Source of the DNA: Psammoneis japonica
Lineage: Eukaryota
Length of the DNA: 64,000 bases
Assembly (NCBI GenBank): GCA_008632985.1
Contig: QPGO01000056.1
Location: forward strand, 124,001-188,000
Direction of reading: 5' to 3'
Shown: piece by piece, positions 4,916 through 64,000 of the stretch
How the letters are laid out: the number at the start of each line of letters is the position of its first letter
How positions within the stretch are numbered: the first letter of the stretch is position 1
Notes under the pieces: generated by a model
What the model saw: the letters and a program-made list of their open reading frames with translations, nothing else
Databases searched by the model: none
Told to the model about the DNA's origin: nothing
Translations under genes and position numbers: made by a program

Positions 4916-6284
4916 GGCGATTTGTGTAGAAAACATGCTAAGCTCTACGTGCGTAGAATCTGGCCCACTTTTGTACCCGTGCCACCTTAAGAGTCGTCCA
5001 ATCAGTTTTAGTGGTCGGACAGCACCAAGTCACCCACTGCTTAGTGTTGACCTGCTTGAATTTTGAATTCATCCTGCAACTAAACATGACAAACTTCTTC
5101 CCATTTCTGCTTGTGCTGCCAAAGCTGCTGGCGTTAAAAACTGGCCAACGAATTGGAGTGTGGCACGCTGCAAAACTGTTGCTGCAAGCTGGCCACACAG
5201 GCTGCTTGGCACTTCTCTCCTTGGGGGAGCAGGAGAAAGGTGTGGTCTTTTTGTGTGAGGCTCCTGTGTTGGGGAGCGCAAAGCAGCGCTGTGGTGCTGC
5301 AATGACACCAACCCTTCCCCAAAGTGTGTGAAAACTTGTTGCTGTGGCGCTCCCCCCTGCACAGCCCCGCACCTGTGCATGCAAACACAAAATGATCTGA
5401 CACAGCCTTGCTGGGCATGGCCATGAAAGACATCCTGCTTTCAACATGCAGGAAAACCTGCATGGAGCAAACAAGACTTTTCCACATGGGGCATCAGGAG
5501 AGGGAAGAGCTCAAATTTGCACCCCCTTGACAGCACCTCCTTTCTGGCATTTTGGGCTTGGCATGTTGTGCGGTGCGGACACTTGTGGGTGGTGGCCATT
5601 TTGCCACTCCTGCAATCTTTGACATCATTGACATGAGCCAGCTGGCCTCTTTTAAACAGAGGCATGGAAACTGAATCCAGCAACTGCCAGCACCCCCCCA
5701 TGGGAAGAGGCCCAACCCAGCCCTGCTTTTGCTGGCTGCCTTGGCTGTGCCCATGTTCGCATCACCCCACTGTTGTTGTTGATCACCCTGGCACCTTTGG
5801 GACATTTTGCTCACTGCCTCTTGTCAGCACAAGGCTGGGAGCTGGGAGCACCGCTGCTTTGCCTCTCGTCCCTCCAGCTCCTCCCTCAGCCTGGGTTGCT
5901 GCGGCCTCCTCTTTTCAGCACCCTTTGGCATTTGTCACCTGCTCTCATGCCCTTCATTTGCCCCAAAGCCTTTTCCCATCTGCCTCTGCATCATGGAAGT
6001 TGGCTTCTTTCTCCCAACTTGGAGCTGCCCCATGTGCGCTGCGCTGTCCCCCTGCTCAGTGGGGGTGCAAAGTGCAAAGCCTTGGTTTCACTGTCAGTCT
6101 GCCAAGGCTCTTGCCAGTCAGCTGTCCTGTCATTCACAGAAATTCTGTTCCAAACTTGCCACCCAATCTGCCAAGCACCCACCTGCCCTGCCCTTCACAC
6201 ATGACTCACACACTTCCAGCACCTGCTCCTTGGTCTGCTGTGCATCAGGGCCACACAACATGATCTCATGTGTCATCATTTCTT

Positions 6285-7430
6285 GAATGCAAAATGTGCA
6301 TTTGTTTGTCCACATTAACATGGAACATGGACTTGTCTGGACAGGACCACCAACCTGGCTTGAATTTGTCTGCCACATTCTTGGCTGTTCCATGCATCAG
6401 TCGGGGCACGCACCTCCCAAAACCTGTCCAGACATTGGGGTGGATTGTCTTTGGTGTGTCTCAGAGCCCTGAGAATGCTTTCAAATTGGTCCTCACTCAT
6501 GTGCTTCCTCAACCACAGAGGTGCACCATTGACATCGTTGACCTCCTTTTGTGACCAAAGCCCTTGACACTGCAGGCCAACAAGAGCAGCCATGAGGAGT
6601 CAGATGCCAAGGAAAACCAGGAAACTCCCAACACTCCACAGGGCTTCCTTCAATGGTTTCATTGACCATGTGAAGTGTGGCATTTTCAACAAAGTCCATT
6701 GGAAATGGCAGCTTAAAGAGCTGCAGCTTTGATGGTTGAATGCTTTGATGGAAGTTGAGTTTGGGGTTCTTGTGATTCACAGTGCCCTCTTTGCAATGCT
6801 CACAAGTGCCACTGCAGTCCCACGCATCACATTGGATGGCCCCATTGTTGTCTCTAGCAGCTGGTGCATTCTCTGGAGCTGGGTCATTAACACCATCTGT
6901 TTGGACGATGTCTCTTGCTTTGTTGATGTCATTGTTTGTCAAGATGAGTGTGCCTTTGCTGCTCAACTCTTGCACAACTTGTGGGAGTTCCTCTCTTTCC
7001 TCTGCTTCAGGGCTTGCACCTTCTGCCTCCATGGTGTCAAAGAAAAACTTGCTGCTGCCTTCAGTGAGTGTTTTGCAGCACCTCTCCCAACAGCATGTCT
7101 CTTGATGCTGATCACCAACCTTGAAGTTGTCAGATTGCATCACAATGGCCAAACATGCTTTGTCTCACATGGTTTTCATTTCTTGTCAGAGCGCCCTTCT
7201 CCAGGACAACACAGCCACTTGCCTCTGATGAGCACCAAAGGATGCAGCCTGCTTGCAGCCACCAAAATGATGGCTCCTTTTCCCATCTGCTTCTTGTGTT
7301 GCAACATTGTTGTTGCGCACCAAAAAAATTGTGGCACCTCAGCACGTTGCATCTTTGCCACAAAGATCAAATTTCTGATGATGCAAAATTGCAGACATGT
7401 TGATTGTTGCATTGTCTGACATGATTTTCA
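6285..7430 (-). mobile_element. Degenerate piggyBac-like transposase fragment (N-terminal half)
   Basis: Fragments NDPAPEN, LFKLPFPMDF...VNETI, MSEDQFESILRALRH...DRFWEVR..DAWN and DKSM..WTNKCT (expected DESM..WTNKYT). Frameshifted and truncated. Confidence 0.7.
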
Positions 7431-8370
7431 TTGCTGGTCAACTGTGAAACAAATCCAATGGTCAAGTTCACAAAATTGTTTCTTGAGGTGTCATGCACAG
7501 ACTCATGTGCTGTTGCTCGTGGGGTGCAGACCGCAGCACCAAGGCTGCAACAAGTCCACTGGGTGGAGCAAAGACTTTTGGCGGTGATTATTTTGTCAAC
7601 ATGTCAAGCATCACAAAGAAAGAGGTGTCGAAGGGTCTCAAGCACATGCGGGGGAAGAAGGTTTGGGGGGTCAAACTGCACCTTGTGCCAATGTGTCTGA
7701 GAAGATGTCATCAGATTTCCTCTGGGGGTCACAAACTGGAAGGCACCAGATTGCAAAACTGTGACATCTGCAGACACGCTGGTGTGAGATGCAGTTTCAC
7801 TGTTGCAATTGACACCCACTCTTGATGATCTTTCCACACATGCATGGTTTGTTGGGTCTTGCAAAGAGATGTCATTGTTGCCCAGCTCCTCCTCTGGGTC
7901 ACATCGTGTTGAGTCCCGCACAGGAGTTTGACTCAGAATTTCTGCGGGGCTCACACTGTCAGAGATGGAATCTTGGATCATGGATCAGCACTGTGGTTTT
8001 GCACTGTTTCTGCAGATGATCTGGCGTGAGTCTTGTGCAGCTCTGCGTGAACTCTGCGTGGCAAAGTTGAGTCTTTGCAGGGCACCTTGACAGAATCAAT
8101 TCGGCCGAATCAGCTGAGTTCAGCTTGCCTGTCCAAAATCCAAATCGGAGCCAAGACGGCAGGCCCAGCACAAGGAGAGGACACCTTGTGGGTGGCCCAG
8201 CTCTTGGAGAAGTCACCATGCGATGGCAGCGCGCAGCAGAAGGTGGACAGATGGACAAAACAAAACCCGACTTCTGTTTTTAAGGTGCCACCGCGCTTCC
8301 GCCCAGCAACTCCGGCAACAAGCTAACCCACACCCCCAGTGCACATGTGTGCGGCAGGGGCGTGTGGCGA

Positions 8371-11300
8371 TCAGCCTGTGCCGGCATCTCCCTCAGGTGA
8401 TGCCACACTGAAACAACTGGCGACAGCACGAGTGCCCCTCACTGCGAGCCGTTTCGCCTCCTCAATGCTGGATTTAAACATGGGTCTCACCATTTCCAAC
8501 CAATTTCGTAATCTTCGAGTTGAGTGAGTCAAGTGTTCTTCCACCAAGTCAAACAAAGTGGACCTGTCCTTTGCGAGATGTTTGCTTGAACAGGAGTAAA
8601 TTGCCTTGACTTCTGCCTCTGCATCTCTCCGTTGGGCTGACTTCCTCGTCTCGGCGTCGTGACCATGTGCTGCGTCATTGTGTCGATCCCACAGTTCCCA
8701 CCACTGGGACCAAATGAAGCTTCCCATGGCAGCAGACCAATCCAATCTCCAGATGTTCTCCTCCACATCAGAAGGAAGCACTGTGTTCCTGAGGTGCAAA
8801 GCGTGCGCTGCATTCCATTGGATGGCAAATCTGCCGTCAAACAGGTGCCTCCATCCTGTCAGATCTTGGGGGTGGAAAACCAAAATGACACTGTGGTGCA
8901 AGTCCTCCGGAAATGCTGTTTGATCATGAAACCAAGCTTTGAGGGCTTCCAAGAGAAGATCTCGCAAGGGAGGGGGCATGTGGATGTCATCGCATTTCTT
9001 GCGCAAGCCCTGAAGGAAAGTGCGTTGCCATGATTCATTGTGAGGGCATTTTAAAATGTGGTCTCGATCCTCCATTGGGTGTGAGCAATGCACACAAGCG
9101 TCTGGGCGATTTGGGTTGTGCCGATGCACTGTCTTGTTGGTGGGAAGTAAATCTTGAACCAATTTGACCGCACTGACCTTTCGTCTGATGTTCCTTGACA
9201 TGAGTTTGGAGTGAGACGCCCAATCTATAGACCGAAACACTTCATCTGTCCATGAGTGTTTCTCTTTCATGTGCTGCACAAGTGCCGGGCGAGATGCTTC
9301 GCATCGCATCACCTGCTCAAACTTGGACCCCACTGTGGAATTGTTCAATGCCAGGTTGGCAGAACAATGAGGCATTCGCGGCGCGAGTGGGGTGTCACTC
9401 TGGAACTTTCCATGGCATTGTCCGGTGATCCTGTCTGCGCAGACATTCACTTTGGCAGGTGGAGAAAGCGTCTCATGTGGAGCATTAGAATCTTGGTGTC
9501 CTTTGACCCACTGAACAGCGACAGAAGTGTGTGGAGTGTTCTCAATGGATGATGCAGCCATTGTTTCCATTGACAAATAGATTTCATTGACAACGTCCCA
9601 ATCAGTGGATGTGGTGTTCGCTGTGTGACATCTGCGGTGAAAGTCAAGCAGCGCGGAGTCTGAATCCTGAACAGGGGAGCTTGACAGTGGTGTCTCAAAC
9701 TTCGACACAGGCAGATGACAGCCGAGTTGTTGCAGCACAGGTCGCTTCCCAGAGGACAGCTTGCAAAGCAACATTCCATCACCCGAGTTGAGAATCTCAG
9801 AAATGACAGCACTCCGCATGCCTCTGCTCTGTGAGAAGTCGGGCGAAAACCGAACACTGGACCAGCGCAGTCTACCAGTGCCGCACCATCGATGGTGAGA
9901 GTCCAGCCGAAAGTTGCTGCCTGTCTGATGACCGACCCATCGCTGCCCGCTGTTGACTGGTGCAACTGCAAGCAGTGTGCAATCTCGAAGACGGATGCGT
10001 GCATGTGAACGTCAGCGAAGAGGAATGACTCCCATTGCGGCAATGATGACAACCAAGCTTGAAAGTCCGAAGGAACCGGCATGGTGGGAGGCAGGTCAAA
10101 TGAAGATCCAGTGTGTCCAATGCGCCACCTGCCATCCTTGGCAGTGTCTGCCATCGCTGGAGAAGCCCTTGGTGACAGATCGGGTGCAACCTCAAGAGGG
10201 TCGACAGATTGGGCGGAGCCGTGAGACATGGGGAAAACCTGGAACCCCGAGTCAGACTTTGTGCACAAATGGTCTTCGTTGGGTTCACAGCATGCAGGAA
10301 AGGTCACGCGCATCTCCGTTGCTGGAATTGCCCAAGAACCCAGGGGGCCTTGAAGTTCTAAATCGTCATTCTTGCATGACAACCTGCAGGCACGTTGCCA
10401 TTGTTTCCATGCTCGAGCAGATGGGGCTGCCTGCTCGACTTGGTTCAATGTCAAAATGCTGCCAAGAACTGAGGTGTTTCCTTGGAACTTGTGCTTGTCA
10501 AGTGCTCTGCCATCGGGTGAGGTGATGTCCAAAACTGTGAGGACATTGAGGAACAAGTGACAACAGTTGACCCACCTGACCTCTTTGTCAGAGAAAAGTC
10601 CCGAATCAAGTGCCATGTCCATGAGATGTTGATCATTGTCTCGTTGAAGAGGAAGAACTCCAGGTTCGTCCAGGTCAAAGGAAGCATCGATGCAAGAAAG
10701 GAAGGGTCCAAGTGAGCTGAACCATTTTGACTCAGAATGTGGCAGGCGGGAGTGCACATCCTTCAAAAAGCTGACACCTGCACCCAGATGGAACTGAATC
10801 CAAGACACTGCGATCCATGAAAGGGCATGTGGCTGGCCAACACCTCTCCAGTGTGACAAGAGCTGCGTGACTTGGCTGACTCCTTGTTCGACATCCAAGG
10901 ACCTGAAACCACCATCTCCAAGGGAACATGGGCGAAAAGGACATCTTGTTTCTTGTTGCGATTGTGTCCACATTTCGCAAAGATTGCATGCATGGCTTTC
11001 CTCTGGATCTCCAACAGTTCCTTCGGGAGAAAATGGGTGTTTGGAAGGGTGCACGTCATTGCTGCCAGGTGGCACACAAAGCAATGGGTCCATGCTTCAT
11101 GCCGATCTAACGGGCATGATCAAAGAAACAATGCCACGTCATCGCTCTTCTTCTTTGAGGCCTTGCAGTGCGTCCTTTGCGTTCCAGCCAGAGCTTCACA
11201 GTGGCCCAAAGTCTTGTGGGATGAGTGAGGTGACAGTTGTGTGCTGGGCCTGCTGTCGGACTGATCTGTGGAAGAAATGTCAATTGCAATTTCATCATTG

Positions 11301-14300
11301 CATGCACGAAGGCAAGGCTCTCCGTCCTCCGTAAAGTTCCATTCAATGACATGAAAGGAGCACTTCGGGAGTTCCAGCTCGTGTCCTGCTGTGTTCAGCA
11401 GGTCGCCCAAAGTTGATTGTCTTGCTGCAACATTTTGAATGCCAACTCCAAGCCATCAGGCTGGGGGGATGCTGTGAAGTCATTCACCTGCTTGGATGTG
11501 TCATCCACGCATCCTCGGTTGTAGATCTTGAGTGACACGGAGTGATCAGGAGACTCAAAGAAAGCTCCGTGAGCTTTTTGGTCGAAGAGATCAAACAAAC
11601 TGTCACACACCTGGTTCCAGCACAGTGGAGAGTTTCCACTGCCTTGTCCTGTGCCGTAGATGGGAAAATCCAAAGAGTGGGAGCAAGAGGCAGGAGACAA
11701 CCCAATGGCTGTTTTCAGCCAGCACCGAGCTTGTAGGAGGGCAGATGCAGCTGACTTTGTCACTGTTTTGGGCATGCCGTTGCTTCGACTTTGAGCGCTG
11801 TAGAGCAGGAATGTTCCTGTTGCAGCAGGAGGCACAGTCGCCGTCACTGTGGACAGCCATTTTCCAAGACACCCTGCTGATTTCCAACATCAGTTCTTCC
11901 AAACATGCTGGGACGTCAGCATGCAGGAAAGGACGTGCACCGTAAATGCCTGGGTTGCACAATTTGCGATGCTCCATGTTCTGAGCCAACGAACGCCCAT
12001 GGGACACTTGAGATCAGTTGGAAATCTGCCTCGCAGATGTGAATGACGTGCAACCGGTGAATCTTGTTGTTGCCCGCTTCCTTGAATGTCATCACGTTCA
12101 CAGTGTCCCTCCATCGGTCACAGGAATGTCCCCAGCGCAAGGCGCAATTGAGCAAATTAAGCCGGATTTGCATCAAGGTCTGCTGAGCAGCATCCAGGCA
12201 GATGCATGCATCCGTTGGATCTCCGTCCTTTGTCTTGGCGCGTGAATGAGTGTGGGAAGCATGCATGGCCTTCCAGTGACCGAGGTGCAATCCCGACTTG
12301 ATGGACACAGAGGCAGTTTCCTTCCATGACTTCAACTTACCCTCCAAATCATTGGCCGTGAGACAAGAGGAGACGGCAACAGGTGAACGACGTTCGAGGT
12401 GCTGAACAAAATGAGACATGGCCTCATTGAGTTGGGTGGTGTCGCATTCGCCGTCTAAGATGAGATCAGCGAAAATCGTGTCTGCCTTGCACCGAGGTCG
12501 ACGGACAGTGGAGGAACAGCAGGTGGAGCACCGTGTGCTTGACCAAAATGGCGTTGGTTGCGGTGGCGGATGGCTGAGGCCACATCGTCTGGGGCATCAA
12601 TGGCGACCCAGTCCTCACACTCTTTTGGATTCACCACTGGGTTCCGGGGTGCCTGCATGCTGTTGACACCATTGTCGCTGTCCAATTTGCAGCATTCAAT
12701 CTTACGGAAAAGTTTCTTGGTTTCTTTGGCCTTGCGGACATTCCTGATGATCTTCACTTTGCATTTGGACTCCTTGGTGCCTTCCAATTCAAGTGAAGCA
12801 ATCTTCTTGGCCATTTCATTTTCACGGTGTACGACGCTGTCGGCAGCAACTTGTCCACATTTGGCTTGGGCGGCGCGGAGCTCACACAGACAGTCCTCCA
12901 GGGTTTCCGGGATGACAAAGGAACCTTGCAGCTTGTCTCGGATGGTGCGGATGTGGCTGCCTTGATCCAGGCGAGTGTGCATCATTGAGACCACTCGGCT
13001 GAGAACATGCACCCGATGCCGCAGTTGTGACAATTCTGCTGACCACTCTGGTTCTCTGTGGATCCGACACTTCTTCGCAGCAGCCAAAGAGAACTGCAAC
13101 ATGTCTCAATCTAACCTTTCTGCCAGTTTGTGATCGGGGACGGCTTGATCAAGTGGTGCCTGTGAGCGAGCCAACATGTGTCTGCCAGCTGACATTGGTC
13201 CGATGGCGTCCAAGCAGGTTGTCACTTGGGGTTGAGATGAAGACTGGGCATCCCTGCAGCTGGCCTTGGGCAAGTCAACGGCAGGATTCCCAAACAAGGC
13301 CATTGTGTCAAAGTCCACGATATGAGCATGATGGTCTGACATGGTGCGACAACTGAAAGCTTCATGTCCGCCAAACCTGGCAGCAGACAAAGCACCGGGT
13401 GCAGCAAGCACGAAGTCCAGGCGTTTCCGTCCTCGCGTGCATGTGGAAAATTCATTGCTGCCCATCAAATTATGTGACACATCCGAAAGGGTAAAACGCT
13501 GGGCGAGGGAGGCGAGTGTGTCTGTGTCCATCAAGAAATTGGTGTTGAAATCTCCGCAAACGATGACTTCGCGATTGGAGTGACCAAGAACTCTTGCAGG
13601 TGACGAGATAAATCTGCACAAAAGGCCTTCCTGGGGTCGACAGACTGTCTGCCATTTTGTTGTAGAAGGGCTGCTTGTTGTGCATGAGCCGCAGTCTTTC
13701 CAGGGGTCCTTTGATTTTTTTCACAAACTCTGCAGCACGAAATGAACATGACTTGCTTGCCGTTGCATCCGTCAAACATCTGAGTGGACCAACGGCCCAA
13801 TGGGTCTGATTCTTGGCTGCGGCATCGTGCTGAGATGGAGTTCCCCGACAAGAGGGCCGCACCACCAGGTTTGTGCTGAGCAGTGAAGGGGGTTGAGCTG
13901 CATGAGAAGGTGCCGCGTCCATTGGAAATTGCACTGTAGACAGCAGATCGACACACTGACAGAATGTCATGCTGCGCAGTGTCCAGACACACTTCCAAAA
14001 TGCCCACGACGTCTGCTTGGATCTCATTTGCCATTTGACAATGCTCACGGATGTCACCGCCTCTTTTGTCCAATTTACAACCGTCAGCATTGAATGCATG
14101 CAGACGAGTGAGATGGGGCAGCTCAGGACAAAGATCATCACCAACAGGATCATTTGATGTCAGCTGAGAAAAGTCAACACTTCGAGCGCTTGACGCACCA
14201 TTGCTGGTGCCGTTCAAGAGCAATTGCCATTCGTTGACACGGATGCACTGATGGAGTCACTGCTCATGTTGGGCCACACTCCTCCGAGGAGAAGACTGGG

Positions 14301-16234
14301 GCTCAGAGCTCTGACTGTCAGGTGATGCAGCGCCGCAGGAGAATTTGCGGTGCTTGGCAGTGCGGCGGAACAAATGGGAGATGGTGAGGGACTCGTTTGC
14401 AGGAGATGAGATGTCGGGTGGATGCCTGATTGTTTGAGGGGGTGGAGGTGGCAAAGTCCAACCCCTGTCTAAAAATCCTTCTCCTTGTCACGTGAATCAG
14501 CCGAGCGATCCGGTGTGTCCATGTGATTTGGACGTTTCCTTGCAGATGTTTGGGTTGGATGATTTGCTTGGAGCAGGTGGACTGTCTGATTCATCTGGTC
14601 CTGCACACCCGCAAGTTGTTGAGAGCACTGAGCATGTAAAGCTGCGATGTCCTGCGCGTGTTGTTGTGTGAATGCATTGTCAATCGCCTCCATGTCTCGT
14701 GAGTGTTGAGAACGTAAATCCTCCAAAGCTCTCTGGTTTTCTCTTGCATCTGAGACATGTTGCGTTGGACGTCTGCCAGCTGAACAGAGGGGCAATGGAG
14801 CTGGCGGTGGACTGTGTGGCCTGTGCATGTGAGTGCGGAGGAGAAATCATGCTGGGGCAACTGGAACATCCGGGCAGCGAGGGCAAGTTCTGGGAGTGCT
14901 GGGTGCAGATGTGGGGAGGAACAGCTGATCCTTGTTGAGCACCACGGCCGGGGAAGCCTCGACCTCTGCCATCACATCCACGGCCCGCCGATTGCAAGTG
15001 GTGGGTGTTGATGATTGCCTGAAGCGTTGTTGTCTGTCAAAGGTGAGACATCAGAAAAGGTGAGAAACTCTAAACTGCGGATGCTGGCCAATGCAATGGA
15101 CTTGCCAGTGTCCGACATGTCTTCCATCATGCCAGAAACTTGAGGAGGATCCTTAAAGAGTGGGGTGGGATGGGCTTCTTTCGAAATTGTTGGGATGAGA
15201 TTCATGTCGCACGTGGAAATGGCGGCCCTGGCAGAGTTGAACTCAAGACAGTTGACAAGGACATTGCAGCGGCCGGCAATGGCACTTGATGGGAAGATCG
15301 CTTTCACGTCCTTCAATGCCTTGAGCTGACTCTCAAAATGGAGCATGATGTCCGGAGCAGTGTTCAGCAGTGGAACGACGAAAGCATCTTCGTTCCGATG
15401 AGCTTGGATTTTGACCGCATTGCAAAAGGTGAGGGGGGAGATGTGCCGGGTCTTGGCCATGACAATGTGTGTTGGGAACTTTTCGGACACATGAAGCAAG
15501 GCCTTCCCGGCCGAGCGACAGTCTTCCATCAACACCTCAACAGCGAAGGCAGCAGCACGTGGGGGAGGAGCAAGACCTTTGTTGTTGGCACGAATGGAGG
15601 TGGGCACCAACCTGAACTTTGGCATTTTTGTCTGGCATTTCCCAAGATCACGGAGGAACATTTTTGCAGCTTCGTCGACTGGAGCATGTTTAGTCGCGGC
15701 AGCAATGTGGCATGCTGGGGAGGCCGTTTCGACATCTGATTCGTTCCAACAATGATGTTTCACACCCATGTTGTTAGAATCCAAAATGCTCTGGATGTGA
15801 GGATGAGAGCGAACGTCACAAAGAGGAATTTTTGCAAGGATCCGGTGGCACAGGCGGTGAGTCACGGGACGTTTTTCACCTTTTCGAGTCATTGAAATGA
15901 CGAAGTGTCTTTCGCATTGAAGAGAAGACACCCATTCGGCCACGTTGACGTGGGCAATTTGGTTGTTGTCATTGTCCATGATCTTTGCGTCCTTGTGGCA
16001 GGTGAAGAGAATTTGTTGAAGAACCTGCAAATGAGCGGCAACAAGAGTCGCTGGCTTGCACGATGCTTCTGGGCCACTGATGTCGAAACGAAGGGCAACT
16101 TCCTCAAACTGATGCTTGGTCGGTTTGGAGGAAGGCTTGATGGATGATTGGTCGACAGTGATGTCATCGGCCACAGTCGTGTCATGACGACAGGAAGGGG
16201 TGTGGCTGCCGTCAGCGACGGAAGAAGATGCCAT
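8371..16234 (-). mobile_element. Large non-LTR retrotransposon (LINE, Ambal-like): ORF1 (16234-~14470) and ORF2 with APE, RT, RNase H and CCHC; pseudogenised
   Basis: APE motifs GDFN, RLDFVL, SDH. RT motifs YGTGQGSGNSP, GCVDD, LELPKC. RNase H motifs SDGS, SHRAEACG, QWVKGHQD. Zn finger CVHC..EDRDHILKC. Many frameshifts. UTR limits uncertain (probably ~7500-16520). Confidence 0.9.
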
Positions 16235-17085
16235 GGTGGTTGGCTGTTCTGCGGGGAACCTGGCGTTGAAAATGCTCAGGCACTTTCAGCTGGAATGCGC
16301 GCAGAATTGTGTGGACAGATGGACAGATGGACGATGGCAAGAGGCCATGTCAGTTTCCCTCATTGTGTTTGGCGGACTGCCGGTGATGATGGGATCAGTT
16401 GCGTCGACCCAACATGGGCCGACAATGCTGAAAATTCTTCCCACCCAGCCCAGCCCTCTGTCCACACAGTGTTGGGGAACAAAATGGACGGAATCAGAAC
16501 CACAGATTTGTTCCCTGTTTTCTAGGCTACTGTCTCAGCAGCACCACACGAATGTACATGCTCGTATGTGTTTCTAGAAGTGTGCATTAGATACATTCGT
16601 GTGTTGATTGTTGCGTCCATTCGGTGGCTTGCACCGAAGCGAGGACGAAGGACGAACTGAACACGAACATCCCTGCGCGCGCGCGCTGCATGCATGTTGT
16701 ACGGTATGCACAGGTATGCATGCATCACGCATCAGGCACAAATAATAAATCAGGCACGACGATGACGGGCCGGCATCACACTCTCACATCATACAACACA
16801 TGGGGAGCTTAAACACCAATGAGAGTACGGTATGATGCCGGCATACCTTCGTCACAAACTTATGGCTTGCTGTTTTCACCACGGTGAAGCACGGTGAAAT
16901 TCGTAAAAACTTCATACACCGCGGGAACCGCGAACCGACAAGTGATATTGAACAGGATGCACCTTCTTCCTATATTCTGCACCCGCTCATAAGCATGCTT
17001 AGATGTGTTGAAAACGGGTTCTCCGAGCTTGTCAATATCATGTCTCACACATTCAAAAAGTGTGAGAGACAAGACGAACCACGTC

Positions 17086-18619
17086 ATGATGAAAACTGTG
17101 TGCAGTCATCTCGCATCACTTGCGATCATCTTGGCGGCCTTCTCGTCTGGAGAAGCTTCAGGTGCGAGGAATGTTCGAAAGTTCAGAGTTCAAGATGTCT
17201 GTGCGTTTTCTTGCAGTTCTCTTTCTCACACTTCTTTTCGTTATGTTTCCGTCTTCGTATTGCCGCAGATGTCGCGACAATGCCAGAGCTTACTGAGGAA
17301 GCACCAGAGAACGAATCAAGAAAGCTTAGAAATTCTGCGGTAAGAATGAAAGATGAAGGACCAAATGCGTCCCTGCATTGATGCACTCTAATTGTTCTCA
17401 TACCGGTACTTCTTCTTCTTACTCTCAAACGTCCTGCACGGACAGCTCTACCGTATTGGAGCTTGTTGCTTTCCTAATCTGGGGAATACTTGTGGCATTG
17501 CCAATGAAGCCGACTGTCTTGCTGCACAGTGACTATTCCAGGGCGATAATACCGAGTGCAACGAAGATGCAACTTGTCCCGTTGTTGCCAATCAACGGAA
17601 TGATGAAGCATTGTGTGGCGAACCAACCTACAATAAGAGAAAGGACTTTGGAGTTTTTCTTTGGCGAAAGTGTTTTTCCAACGAGTGGTACCTACAAGCC
17701 GCCGGTGGTAAACAGCCCGTGTCAATCAATGGCACGCTGGTTGCAGATACATCCCATCAACAAGAAGGCCGTCGGTGTTGAGCTAAACAAGGATTTCACA
17801 ATCAATGTCGCGAAGAAAAAGAAGGATGGATTCAATTTCGTTGTCAAGGATGATGGGAGGGGATGTTTGACTATCAAGTCGCCCGAAGATATTCCCCTTT
17901 ACGTTGGTAAGGATCGGGTGGAGCTTGCTACCAAATCCATAAGTGTCCCTGGCTTCAAGCCTTGCGATGGACCGATTCTCGAATACCGCTTTGATTCATC
18001 CAACACCATCTACAAGGACACGGGATCTAATGGATGGGACGGTGTCAGCGTCGGAGGCAGAAGTGGGATAGACTACACCAGTTTAGGTCACTCCAAGTAC
18101 GGCGCCAGCCTTGATGGGAGGAGGAACAACATGATTATCTCCGAATCGAAGGACCTGAAAATGGAGAAGTACTCCATGATGGCGTGGGTTCGGTATACTG
18201 AAACTACAAACGCTGTGAATTCATATGTGATTGCCCACAAAACGGGAGTAATTTGGTTCACCATCAATAAGGAAACTCGTGCAGCGAGGTTCGGGGGCTT
18301 CTTTGGTGGTTGTGCTCGCAAAAACAAGGTAGCGGTCAAGGGTACCAAAGTAATTCCTACAGAGTCATGGACCCACATTGCTGCAACTAATAATGGTGAT
18401 ACCTTGAAGCTCTACATCAATGGAGAACTAGACGGCGAGGTTGACATCGGTACCAAAGCTCCCTACTGTTACAATCAGGCACCATTTAGCATTGGCGCCT
18501 CGGTGGGAGAGACTCGATCGGGCGATCGGGACTTTTTTCGAGGGCAAATGGACACGGTCCGCATCTACGATAAGGATCTCAGTCAAGATGAAATACGTTC
18601 CGAAATGTTTCGCCATTAG
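17086..18619 (+). pseudogene. Secreted protein with a GACC Cys-rich module and a C-terminal LamG/concanavalin-like domain; disrupted
   Basis: Signal peptide from ATG 17086. Introns 17162-17268 and 17340-17445 are in phase. In-frame TGA at 17530-17532 and a frameshift near 17752. LamG motifs WTHIAAT..G..LKLYING and FRGQMDTVRIYDKDLS. Confidence 0.7.
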
Positions 18620-37396: not shown

Positions 37397-38628
37397 TTAC
37401 ACCTCAACGTTGGTGCATTCCGCCGTCTTGCTGAACCGTTTCAAAATGCCAGCGGTCACCTTTCCGGGTCCAAGTTCAAAGGCTTTTTCGAAATCCTTCG
37501 ACAGCATGGTATCCATGGTGTTCTCCCAGAGTACTGGCGAAGTAACCTGCGTTGCCAACAGCTTCTTGATGGTATCAGGGTCTGAGTGAGGCTTGGCATC
37601 AACGTTGCTGATTACTGGGATTCTTGGCTTTTTGATTTCGACTTCCTTCAAAACTTCCTCGAGAGCGGCAACGGCGGGTTTCATAAAGTCAGTGTGGAAG
37701 GCACCGGCAACAGCAAGCTTCACTGTCATGCGTGCTTTAAATTCCGGCTTTGCAATCTCTGCAACGACATCACAAGCCTTGGAGGAACCACTCACGGCGT
37801 AGTTGCCGTTGCAGAGGAAGTTGGCAATTTGAATAGATTCACCGCTTTTCTCCGATGCCATCTCACAGAGTTCAGCAACTTTGTCCGAACCAAGCCCAAT
37901 CACCGACACCATGCCAGAGTCAACTGCGTCAGAGGCGGCCTGCATGGCTTCTCCGCGTGCCTTGGTGATCTTGACACCATCCGCAAAGGAAAGGGCATCC
38001 GCAAAGCAGAGAGCAGAGTACTCTCCCAAACTCAGACCCATGGCACAAGTAGCAGCATCAATTGCTTCTTCTCCTTGTTCTTGACGCAACTTTTCGACAG
38101 CCGCCATGCTTGCAACAAAAATGGCTGGTTGAGACACCTCGGTCGAGTCCAAAAGCTCCTTTGGTCCGTTTGTGCATCGCTCTAGCAAATCATAACCGAG
38201 AATCTCACTGGCTTCGTCGAAAAGAGCCTTTGCTGCCGGAACCTCCTCGCAAACGGTCCCACACATGCCTACAAACTGTGCGCCTTGTCCAGGGAACATG
38301 AACGCAACCTAAAACATATTGTAAAAAAATGAGGTGCTTCTTTGTGAGAAAGATATTTGAAAAAGGATTCAGTTCCGAGTGGAAACCCCTACATGACAGC
38401 GTTTTTTTTTTTTCGTGATTTGCTCCACAAACTTGGAGAACAAACGGTTTGTTGCAATAGTATATCCGCAAAAACAACACTCACCTTGGTTGAGAAATCG
38501 TCAAAATCGTTGTCACTTGCAAAAATTGACATGGCACGTCTTCCAACGCTTTTTTGCGCGGGAACAAACGCCGCGGCGAATCTAGTAGCTGTGATGAGCA
38601 TCATGCCGAGAGAACAAATACGAGCCAT
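37397..38628 (-). CDS. fabD: Plastid malonyl-CoA:ACP transacylase
   Basis: Motifs FPGQGAQ, SQPAI, GLSLGEY and VAGAFH. AAA-FVP presequence. Intron 38484-38309. Confidence 0.95.
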
Positions 38629-38947: not shown

Positions 38948-39130
38948 NNNNNNNNNNNNNNNNNNNNNNNNNNNNNNNNNNNNNNNNNNNNNNNNNNNNN
39001 NNNNNNNNNNNNNNNNNNNNNNNNNNNNNNNNNNNNNNNNNNNNNNNNNNNNNNNNNNNNNNNNNNNNNNNNNNNNNNNNNNNNNNNNNNNNNNNNNNNN
39101 NNNNNNNNNNNNNNNNNNNNNNNNNNNNNN
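38948..39130. other. Assembly gap (N run)
   Basis: Run of n, preceded by a (TAG)n tract. Confidence 1.
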
Positions 39131-61320: not shown

Positions 61321-61629
61321 TGGCAGCCAGCAGCAATTTTCAACCCATCTTCACTTTTGTGTGGAACAAAAAAAAGTCACACCTGGGGAAGGAAGCAAAC
61401 ATGGGAGCCGCAACTGCCTGCAAAACTTGCCTTCTCAATGATGCCATCAATGGTTCTTGCACTTCTCTTGCATGACATTGTGTTCATTTCCACATGACTT
61501 TGTATTTTTCCTTGTTTGAAATGTCAATCATGACTCACGTGACATTTTTGAATGATTCCCATTGTGTTGTGCTCAATGGCTGGCTTGGAAAACATGACAG
61601 AAATGCCAGGATTGGCTTCTGTGCAACAA

Positions 61630-62320
61630 TTTGGACTGATGTTGTGTGTTTGATTTGTTTGGTCATGCATGCACCCTTGGAGAAGTTGAGCATGATCAAT
61701 CTCGAGCTCATCTCATTGTTGGGCATGCTGCAAGCAACAGCCCTTTTGCATCGTTTGCATGCAATGCCTCTCTGCTTGGAGCTCAACAATCAGCAATGCC
61801 TGGATTGGCTTTAACACAACAAGAAGTTTGGACAACATTTGTGCATTTGATTTGTTTGGTTCACATGCATTTGCAGTGAGCGTGATCAATCTTGCACTCA
61901 TCCTCATTGTTGGATGTGTTGGAGCTGCTTTCGCGTCATTTGTGCACAATGCCTCAGCTTGGAACTCAACAATGACACATGGATTTTCTTTTGAACAACA
62001 AGTTTGGAAAACATTTGTGCGTTTGATTTGTTTGGTTCACATGCATTTGCAGTGAGCGCGACCAATCTCGCGCTCATCCTCATTGCTGGACACACTGGAG
62101 CCGCTTCTTTTGCGTCATTTGTGTGCACGATGCCTCAGCTTGGAACTCAACAATGACACCTGGATTTTCTTTTACACAACAAGTTTGGACAAAATTTGCA
62201 TGTTTGATTTGTTTGGTTCACATGCATCCACAGTGAGCACAATCAATCTCGCGCTCATCCTTGTTGTGCGGCGTGCAGGGACCGCTTTTTTGCATCGTTT
62301 GCATGCAATGGCTCTGGCTG
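61630..62320. repeat. Tandem repeat, ~180-195 bp unit, about 4 copies
   Basis: tttgatttgtttgg recurs near 61649, 61846, 62022 and 62203. Confidence 0.9.
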
Positions 62321-63406
62321 CTTGGCATGCATTTGCATTTCAATCTAATTCAGGTGCCATGTTACACAAGCACGGAACTGTTTGGCTCTGCCAGATGGCA
62401 GCTCATTGCATTTTGTCCAGAGCTCTGCTGTGGCCATTTGCTTTTTTTAAGTTGCCATGTGCCCTGCTTCGCATGGTGATTTTTTGGTGTCATTGACAGA
62501 ATGACAAAAAAGAGGGGAGGAGAGAGAGAGGAGAGAGAGAGGAGAAGAGAGGAGAAAAGAGAGGAAAGAGAGGAAAAGGGAGAAGAAGGCAGAAAGAGTT
62601 CAATGCTGCAAGTCCAAGTGCGTGTTGTCATGCTTTGTTTTGATGCAAAAAAGCATGTTCTTTAGTGTGCCTCCGATGAATGTGAAAAGACATAAAGTTT
62701 GTAGAAACAAAGCACAAGAAAAAGTTTTCCATGTTCAAGTGAGGGTGCACCCACGACACCCAGACAACGCAGTGCAGAAAACCATCCATCACAAAAAACC
62801 ACGTGCTGCAGAAGCAGCCGATGCTCGATCATTGCCGTCAAACCTTCTCTTGCAAACAACACATTAATGCAGGTCAATTCCACAATTTGCTCTGTTGTTG
62901 TGTGTCCAAGAAAACAGAGGTGAGAAAGTCCCAAAATGGGTGAAAACTCCTTCTGTGTTTTTGCTGCTGTTGGCATTGCTTGATTCTCACAACTTTCACA
63001 CTTCAATTTTGTTTTTCTCGACAGATCGAAGAGCACAGACCATCCTTGTTTTGAGAATGTGTTTGATTCAACTCCTTCCCATGGAGTGAAAGAAAACACC
63101 TTGATGAGCATCGTTGCTTTATTTTGCCGCCGCCACCACGTGCTGCATGAGGCAAGAACATGCCCTGAGCATTTCTTTCATGCGATTCCACGCAGTGAGT
63201 GGTGCTCCCTTGTTCAGGGACCAAAAGGGCATGGGAGTCAGCTGTGTTGGAGAAGATGGCATTGGAGCAGGTGGTTTTGGAGCAGTGGCTGCGTGCAGGG
63301 GCTGCGATGTTGCCGTCCATGGTTGGCAAGGAGTTGGGCCACTGTGACGCCATCGATGGATGTTGGGAATGCAGTCAACTCTGCTGAAGAGCACACGACA
63401 AATCGC

Positions 63407-63773
63407 AGCTGTGAGTGGGGACTGCAATGCGACAACGCCGTCAATGGACCTCAGGAAAAAGCAGGGGTTGCGGGAACGCCAAGGGGCTGTGGTTGAGCCA
63501 TCGGGCTGTGGTGTCACCATTGGGACACCGGTCAAAAGTCGAAACAGCAGCGGCAGCAAGAGATGGAAATGGACGTGCCTGTTGTGAGGGCACATGTCGT
63601 AGCTTCGAGTGGGGACTGCAATGCAATGAAGCCATCAATGGACCTTGGGAAAGGGTGGGGGCTGCGGAAATGCTGAGGGGCTGCAGTGATGTCACCATTG
63701 GGATGCCGGTCGAAAGTCGAAATGGCAGCGGCAGCGAGAGATGGAAATGGATCTGCCTGTCATGAGGGCACAT
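63407..63773. repeat. Tandem duplication, ~175-190 bp unit
   Basis: gagtggggactgcaatgc...gagatggaaatgga...gagggcacat occurs twice. Confidence 0.9.
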
Positions 63774-64000
63774 TTGCTTTTTGTTTTGACAGAAGGCAAG
63801 TTTTGATTGCTCTTGCTGGTGATTGCCAGTCTAGCTGCATGGCACAATGATTTCCCAACTGTGGATGCATCTGGTGCTCACATGAATGTCTGCCTCCATG
63901 TCCTTTGCAGTCTTGACATTGGCAGGCACGGCAAGTCCTCCTGCCCCTTTTCTCTTTGTCAGGGCCATGCCTTCCAGGACAATGATTTTGCAAGTTTGGT

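Follow-up and report, generated by a model that had tools for sequence, protein, structure and literature searches.

Repeat-induced point mutation (RIP), which changes C to T at CpA in Neurospora and other fungi, is a dinucleotide-specific transition hypermutation that inactivates repeats and mobile elements in sharply bounded tracts. In animals, the editing of retroelements by host deaminases is well known, with APOBEC enzymes converting C to U and ADARs, which show a loose preference for the 5' neighbour, converting A to G. A hypermutation directed at TpA has been described in a preprint for integrated DNA of nucleocytoplasmic large DNA viruses (NCLDV) and virophages in the chlorarachniophyte alga Bigelowiella natans (Mettrop et al., 2026; preprint 10.64898/2026.01.13.699255). 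According to the main text of this preprint, two integrated viral regions mutated at about 1000 times the background rate in mutation-accumulation lines, and 230 of the 231 single-nucleotide mutations there were A>G or T>C, all of these on TpA; TpA-poor coding sequences were enriched for reverse transcriptase (RT) and endonuclease-RT domains, and an ADAT2-like deaminase was proposed. Here, we analysed 64,000 nucleotides of the diatom Psammoneis japonica (contig QPGO01000056.1 of assembly GCA_008632985.1, positions 124,001 to 188,000 of the forward strand; hereafter the window, with positions counted from its first letter) and, within them, a long interspersed nuclear element (LINE) on the minus strand. 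The footprint in this LINE supports the occurrence, in a new lineage, of a TpA hypermutation of the kind known from this one preprint.

A first-pass annotation, made from the sequence alone, had described positions 8371-16234 as a LINE that retains many CpGs and very few TAs, and the counts bear this out. In these 7,864 bp, TA occurs 38 times (observed/expected ratio, o/e, 0.08) and CG 327 times (o/e 0.62), and CA (685) and TG (846) are in excess with an o/e of 1.56 each. About 480 TA would be expected from the base composition and about 260 at the local background ratio; the number found is far outside chance. Unaffected stretches of the window have a TA o/e of 0.44-0.69, a CG o/e of 0.80-1.03 and a (TG+CA) o/e of 1.16-1.32, with values of 0.56, 1.00 and 1.17, respectively, for a gene island at 35327-56261. 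When the window was tabulated by tracts, the LINE had a CG o/e of 0.54-0.67 and a (TG+CA) o/e of 1.55-1.58. It lies in a longer TA-erased tract (Table 1), inside which CG is sparse from about 5170 to 7950 and dense from 8025 onwards; the part to the left of the LINE (5210-8309) has a TA o/e of 0.04 and a CG o/e of 0.21.

To polarise the changes, up to 157 homologues were aligned, and the 514 codon columns that were covered by at least 10 homologues with at least 60% agreement were kept. At the 23 conserved Tyr columns the LINE now has TGY (13), CAY (5), TTY (3) or TAC (2), so that, as in Bigelowiella, the changes are almost only A>G or T>C. Other conserved residues were retained in 47-100% of their columns, 16 of the 19 residue types in at least 67% (for example D 33/37, W 24/25, H 15/17 and F 16/20); retention was lowest for Ile (9/19) and Thr (12/23), whose codons start with A or can hold TA. 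Second-position A>G changes depended on the preceding base, with 13/23 changed after T, 1/31 after A, 0/55 after G and 0/35 after C, and first-position T>C changes were found at 5/23 sites followed by A, 1/20 followed by T and 0/34 followed by G. In total, 18 of 23 TpA sites were mutated (13 A>G, 5 T>C), compared with 2 of 175 sites in other A/T contexts (p = 4e-19). A mutated fraction at TA no higher than at other A/T sites of the same copy, the outcome that the first-pass annotation had named in advance as fatal to its proposal, was thus not observed. An ancestral A in first codon position (conserved T, I, M, N or K) has become G in 10/15 cases after T and in 3/60 cases otherwise (p = 8e-7); as the effect crosses codon boundaries, the TpA rule is independent of the reading frame.

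Among 28 changed Tyr sites, 17 are now TG (A>G in sense) and 11 are CA (T>C in sense), arranged in 16 runs compared with 14.4 obtained by shuffling. No strand-coordinated clustering of the two outcomes was found among these sites, and their interleaving indicates that both strands were hit without coordinated blocks, which speaks against transcript-only editing and against one event on a single strand. At 33 columns with a Tyr majority, the LINE kept Tyr twice, compared with 17-100% in 117 homologues, which have nearly no Cys there; the copy is dead, and in a manner not open to an active master. None of these 117 public homologues displays the Tyr>Cys/His pattern; as predicted proteins, they are expected to represent unhit copies. 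A further context effect is suggested by the remaining sites: in the sense strand, 21 of the 40 TA left in the LINE are preceded by T (8.7 expected), and Tyr>His followed a purine in 8/10 cases and Tyr>Cys in 6/15. Tentatively, the mutator may prefer TA followed by a pyrimidine, with the numbers being small and the origin of new TA by other mutation possible. In the TA-erased tracts between 5210 and 64000, leftover TTAA is enriched about 7-fold and YTAR is enriched generally, and ATAT and GTAC are absent.

The extent of CG loss was determined in the same copy. Of the traceable Tyr codons, 18/20 were lost (95% confidence interval 0.68-0.99), compared with 6/24 conserved CGN Arg codons (0.10-0.47), which are now CAY, CAA or TGG (Fisher p = 1.6e-5). 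An ancestral G in first position (D, E, G, A or V) is now A in 9/42 cases after C, 0/37 after A, 3/32 after G and 0/36 after T, hence in 9/42 cases after C compared with 3/105 otherwise. CpG-specific decay is therefore real but modest. By o/e (0.62 compared with about 1.0), the CG loss amounts to about 38%. A single copy thus provides an internal calibration, with about 90% of TA but about 25-38% of CG lost, which indicates that the TA process is faster and separable in degree from methyl-CpG decay. This supports the earlier suggestion that TpA conversion outran 5-methylcytosine (5mC) decay; the demonstration extends to 'faster', and mechanistic independence is not implied.

The neighbourhood forms a series with the LINE. 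Seven further TA-erased tracts in the window have a TA o/e of 0.04-0.06 and a (TG+CA) o/e of 1.64-1.99. Five of them, one being the block that adjoins the LINE on the left, have a CG o/e of 0.16-0.21. Across the window, 1-kb windows with a CG o/e below 0.5 occurred only where the TA o/e was at most 0.31. The simplest reading of this series is a time order in which TA is lost first and fast and CG later and slowly. The other two tracts, near the window end (62864-64000 and 61455-62248), have a CG o/e of 0.47 and 0.39, respectively; these values are lower than that of the LINE (0.62) and higher than those of the old tracts, and the two may be of intermediate age. A mass balance, which is rough as it assumes a background-like ancestor, gave for the LINE changes in o/e units of -0.47 for TA and -0.38 for CG against +2 x 0.39 for (TG+CA), and for the old tracts -0.51 and -0.8 against +2 x 0.65, so that in both the gain of TG and CA is roughly as large as the losses of TA and CG taken together. 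The old tracts contain 26 open reading frames (ORFs) of at least 130 amino acids, none of which gave a Pfam match or a match to the LINE homologues. Erasure is regionally confined: the tract 5135-16523 is affected, whereas a neighbouring gene with a Laminin_G_3 domain and the gene island at 35-56 kb have normal TA. Context and direction of the changes, the use of both strands, the independence of the frame and the lead of TA loss over CG loss are shown at this locus.

With respect to the encoded proteins, the expectation that the process disables them by removing Tyr rather than by creating stops proved correct. TA>TG/CA changes convert TAY to Cys or His, TAG to Trp or Gln and TAA to TGA or Gln, and because of the genetic code they cannot create a stop. 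In the ORF2 remnant of the LINE, 0.31% of the codons encode Tyr, compared with a homologue median of 3.55% and a lowest value among the 157 homologues of 0.91% (P0125). Both of its two in-frame stops are TGA, and one of them is located at a column that is mostly Arg in the homologues and would correspond to CGA>TGA, a CpG change; ORF1 has no Tyr at all. Counted per kb in all frames of both strands, TAA and TAG occur 4.1 and 2.5 times compared with 17.9 and 17.6 in unaffected DNA, and TGA 45 compared with 38 times. In the six frames of 8000-16600, 47 stop-to-stop ORFs of at least 80 amino acids overlap the 8.6 kb, antisense and overlapping ones included; the many long ORFs arise because TAA and TAG are nearly absent. 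Of five motifs that had been named as apparent hits, four hold against the homologue columns. IHICEAD has C where 29/32 homologues have Y; GHSCDRW has H where 24/29 have Y, and C at a column with Y (11), F (10) or L (8); SHRAEACG has H where 60/97 and C where 70/98 have Y; and STCTRG has C where 13/23 have Y. The fifth, GCVDD, is not a clean case and is considered below.

As far as the main text of the preprint describes it, the process in B. natans shares with the diatom LINE the change of A:T to G:C at TpA only, the TpG and CpA outcomes, the use of both strands, the confinement to integrated foreign or mobile DNA and the coupling of TpA depletion to an excess of CpA and TpG. The host differs, being a chlorarachniophyte there and a stramenopile here, and so does the target, which is integrated viral DNA in B. 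natans and a LINE together with old repeats in the diatom. The B. natans NCLDV region has a Rho of 0.45, whereas the loss reported here is near saturation (TA o/e 0.04-0.08), and the rate was measured de novo in B. natans, whereas here the footprint is known from sequence alone. Finally, CpG decay accompanies TpA loss in the diatom; neither 'CpG' nor 'diatom' occurs in the main text of the preprint. Our literature search yielded no account of diatoms losing TpA, and a 'TpA' match in a diatom paper (PMC4504042) turned out to be the word 'Tpase'.

The better known systems account for parts of the footprint. RIP resembles it in kind and runs in the opposite direction, turning CpA into TpA and leaving DNA rich in TA and stops, whereas here TpA becomes TpG or CpA and TAA and TAG are erased. 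RIP was rejected, as a TA o/e of 0.08 and a CA/TG o/e of 1.56 are the opposite of a TpA excess. The comparison with RIP is also made in the main text of the B. natans preprint. Decay of methylated CpG agrees with the changes to TpG or CpA that are confined to CpG and strongest in the oldest tracts; it accounts for no more than the smaller half of what is seen and cannot remove TpA. Editing by ADAR or APOBEC enzymes is similar in that A>G changes in a retrotransposon copy disable its proteins, and differs from the strict TpA context, the interleaving of both strands and the involvement of flanks outside the element. ADAR-type RNA editing carried into DNA was discarded as a candidate, as A>G on the transcript strand alone was not found (17 A>G and 11 T>C in sense).

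Taken together, we consider it probable that a TpA-directed DNA mutator acted on the LINE after its insertion and that CpG decay of the 5mC type proceeded more slowly. The LINE copy would have landed in diatom repeat DNA that had undergone erasure before, which fits the target-site duplication (TSD), the copies of which are identical and contain neither TA nor CG. A DNA-level mutator would then have turned A:T of TpA into G:C on either strand, giving TA>TG or TA>CA. The per-site rate of this change would have been about eight times that of CpG>TpG/CpA decay in the same copy, a ratio that presumes that both decays are first-order and had the same start. The CpG decay may be ascribed to 5mC deamination on a methylated transposon; by the account in PMC9998398, CG methylation of diatom transposons is established. 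The LINE would represent the young stage of a two-step ageing, with TA nearly gone and CG mostly kept, and the unrecognisable neighbouring tracts the old stage, with both TA and CG converted to TG/CA. As a master element lacking the conserved Tyr residues would hardly be active, it appears likelier that this copy itself, or a progenitor that was already dead, underwent erasure. The enzyme involved might deaminate adenine to inosine or oxidise thymine, and silent chromatin or repeat status may serve as the targeting cue. That erasure followed insertion here, and that 5mC has a part in the CG loss, are likewise inferences.

Apart from the presumption underlying the eight-fold ratio, several observations weigh against this reading. 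Both flanks of the LINE are erased, and the locus alone cannot separate erasure after insertion from erasure before it; likewise, the retained CG may reflect a lack of methylation rather than a young age of the element. The ancestral states were taken from homologues that are only 25-48% identical and not from the family's own copies, and the LINE family may never have had Y or CGN at some of the Y or R columns. The Cys of GCVDD is located at a column where 39/41 homologues have F and two (P0012 and P0015) have Y, so that it must stem from a subfamily ancestor with Y or have arisen by a T>G transversion. Erasure is also incomplete, with two Tyr codons (TAC) and 40 TA left in the LINE. In addition, other copies of the family in public contigs (run X1), with 2,168 differing places, differ from the LINE by G>A (488), C>T (425), A>G (398) and T>C (343) as well as 491 transversions, all of these being totals taken regardless of context.

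Other explanations were weighed against the same data. That no targeted mutator was involved, and that TA is scarce owing to the family's own composition, to selection against it or to GC-biased gene conversion in a region rich in repeats, is extremely improbable. TA is indeed under-represented throughout, with an o/e of about 0.55 in unaffected window DNA; however, catalytic or structural Tyr residues were replaced despite a conservation of up to 29/32 and 70/98 homologues, the effect crosses codon boundaries, the tract edges are sharp, and A following A, G or C has become G at only 1/121 sites, contrary to what would be expected of a general AT>GC bias. Editing before integration, either of the LINE RNA by an ADAR-like enzyme or of the cDNA or RNA:DNA hybrid during retrotransposition, would mean that the copy arrived TA-poor. 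The end of the TA-free zone about 200 bp from the 5' end of the LINE (16523 compared with 16310) would be in line with this, but transcript-only editing yields A>G alone in sense, whereas 17 A>G and 11 T>C stand intermixed here, and the flanks outside the LINE, including the TSD, are equally free of TA. The context is also stricter than that of ADARs, with A after A changed in 1/31 cases, and we therefore regard this route as very unlikely.

Two further explanations concern the nature of the process rather than its existence. A single deaminase or repair bias might remove both TpA, which it would do faster, and CpG, leaving 5mC decay without a separate part. Both losses yield TG/CA and stay within the same tracts, the window has no CG depletion without TA depletion, and the preprint 10.64898/2026.01.13.699255 refers, in its main text, to ADAT2 enzymes for which deamination of both A and C in DNA has been reported. 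On the other hand, the two losses are strongly uncoupled in the LINE (18/20 compared with 6/24), the established CG methylation of diatom transposons is in itself a sufficient cause of CpG decay (PMC9998398), and the de novo spectrum given in the main text for B. natans is nearly free of C>T, with 1/231 mutations other than A>G or T>C; a single process thus appears rather improbable. Alternatively, the chemistry could be a different one, with the T of TpA as the target instead of the A, for example by oxidation to 5-hydroxymethyl- or 5-formyluracil. 5-Formyluracil can mispair with G. As TpA is self-complementary, a T>C change in one strand is read as A>G in its complement, and sequence does not distinguish the two; the leftover contexts (TTAA enriched, ATAT and GTAC absent) fit a 5'-purine rule for T equally well as a 3'-pyrimidine rule for A. 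No observation made here counts against a thymine target, which we regard as unlikely, less so than any of the preceding explanations.

Starting from a TpA-directed mutator acting after insertion, a broader proposal can be made, which we put forward as a possibility that is more doubtful than the local reading. Diatoms might carry a dedicated, domain-targeted DNA editor, with a function resembling that of the editor inferred for the rhizarian Bigelowiella, and possibly old in the stramenopile-alveolate-Rhizaria (SAR) group. In mobile DNA that has just integrated, it would quickly rewrite TpA of both strands to TpG/CpA, well before methyl-CpG decay, and would kill retroelements through the loss of Tyr, Ile and Leu codons with the frames left open. 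The CG o/e in erased tracts would then be a second, slower clock by which silencing could be dated. If TpA hypermutation, known from one preprint on an alga, also operates in diatoms, it would do so in major primary producers of the ocean, and there it would act on ordinary retrotransposons and near saturation. Erased DNA without TAA and TAG would contain long spurious ORFs that mislead gene callers, and, as dead elements would be short of Tyr rather than laden with stops, transposon ages estimated by stop counts or by CpG alone would be misled as well.

The element is a non-LTR (long terminal repeat) retrotransposon. Its extent was set by an exact 15-bp direct repeat flanking it, the TSD, which was identified as the longest exact direct repeat between 8200-8300 and 16270-16380 (Table 1). 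The interval 8371-16234 given in the first-pass annotation comprises the coding part only, the TSD-bounded LINE being slightly wider; its description as near full-length is confirmed by the TSD and by tblastn alignments of ORF2 from end to end with homologues. In a self-comparison of the window, neither LTR-like terminal repeats nor a second copy of the LINE was found, and in tblastn searches of the window with the 157 homologues, 433/433 high-scoring segment pairs were located within the LINE and none elsewhere.

ORF1 looks intact, without an internal stop, and gave no Pfam match. For ORF2, the end-to-end partners were P0005 (residues 78-1973 of 1982), P0008, P0009 and P0007; the homologues are 1,936-1,989 amino acids long, with an aligned identity to ORF2 of 25-48%. 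The frame changes of ORF2 are located near 13581, 12490, 11998, 11800, 11404, 10934 and 9666, and the in-frame TGA codons at 11120-11122 and 13106-13108. As in other LINEs of this type, an endonuclease of the AP (apurinic/apyrimidinic) type, belonging to the endonuclease/exonuclease/phosphatase (EEP) family, lies N-terminal to the RT. Exo_endo_phos matched the window ORF with an E-value of 4.7e-4, below the cut-off, and homologue P0005 with 27.2 bits compared with a cut-off of 24.5, and a profile of 16 family sequences matched the EEP endonuclease structures 3teb and 2v0r, and EEP endonucleases only. The V, D and D of the RT motif xVDD are invariant in 41/41 homologues, as expected for a LINE RT; RVT_1 reached 21.6 and 22.6 bits on homologues P0005 and P0007, under the cut-off of 29.6. 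The label RNase H, which had been given to the region of SHRAEACG, was not confirmed by Pfam on the window ORF or the homologues or by comparisons with PDB, and phmmer with P0005 against PDB returned no match.

Table 1. Positions of the LINE, its parts and other features in the window.
Feature	Position	Strand	Remarks
LINE (non-LTR retrotransposon)	8258-16310	-	8,053 bp
Left TSD copy	8243-8257	.	15 bp, GTGGACAGATGGACA; 3' side of LINE
Right TSD copy	16311-16325	.	15 bp, GTGGACAGATGGACA; 5' side of LINE
ORF1	14972-16234	-	ATG at 16234; 420 codons + stop; Y 0, C 14, H 23
ORF2 remnant	8389-14163	-	7 frame changes, 2 in-frame TGA (tblastn)
AP-type (EEP) endonuclease domain	13106-14163	-	Pfam Exo_endo_phos; STCTRG where family has T-Y-x-R-G
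Reverse transcriptase core	11359-12596	-	By homologue alignment
RT motif GHSCDRW	12131	-	First base of first codon
RT motif IHICEAD	12044	-	First base of first codon
RT motif GCVDD	11514	-	First base of first codon
SHRAEACG	9813-9836	-	Family S-Y-R-A-E-x-Y-G; labelled RNase H in the first-pass annotation
zf-RVT-type zinc-binding region	9040-9192	-	Pfam PF13966, E 0.0016, 19.5 bits, below cut-off of 27.5
Whole TA-erased tract holding the LINE	5135-16523	.	From TA and CG position lists; TA dense outside; right edge sharp
Malonyl-CoA:ACP transacylase ORF	37397-38308		Best taxon-named matches 85-88% identity, all diatoms

Further copies of the family were found in the contigs of run X1, 1,618 of which align at a likeness of at least 80%, and the LINE family is thus multi-copy. 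Nine of these contigs have loose ends at 8255, corresponding to the 3' end of other copies. In 8273-8806 the summed contig depth was 2,337, whereas the body had 314-663 and the left flank about 61; this depth is not a copy number, and its rise at the 3' end would be the pattern expected for mostly 5'-truncated copies. At four of the seven frame-change sites of ORF2 (13581, 12490, 11998 and 11792-11800), other copies have 1-base insertions or deletions relative to the LINE, indicating that these frameshifts are private to this copy. Summed depth was also raised in flank bins, indicating that the LINE is located within another repeat family. Some contigs of the same run lead from 8243 straight to 16322 or 16361 across 7 or 25 intervening letters (depth 63 and 51), which suggests LINE-free paralogues, or alleles, of the flanking repeat.

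To the right of the tract, at a distance of about 360 bp from its edge, a host gene with the Laminin_G_3 domain (ORF 17357-18619) has normal TA and CG. Contigs of run X2 over 16886-18237 skip 17159-17265 (GT..AG) and 17339-17435 as spliced RNA does. The gene is expressed, adjacent to the erased tract and unaffected by erasure. In or beside TA-erased tracts towards the window end, 61567-62325 and 63403-63773 are tandem arrays whose copies, 72-77% alike, recur about every 190 bp. In the gene island, the diatoms matched by the transacylase ORF (Table 1) include Odontella, Ditylum, Eucampia, Fragilariopsis, Seminavis and Cylindrotheca, among others; these matches place the host among diatoms and not with Bigelowiella. 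An assembly gap of 183 N (38948-39130) is located between two ORFs for leucine-rich repeat (LRR) proteins.

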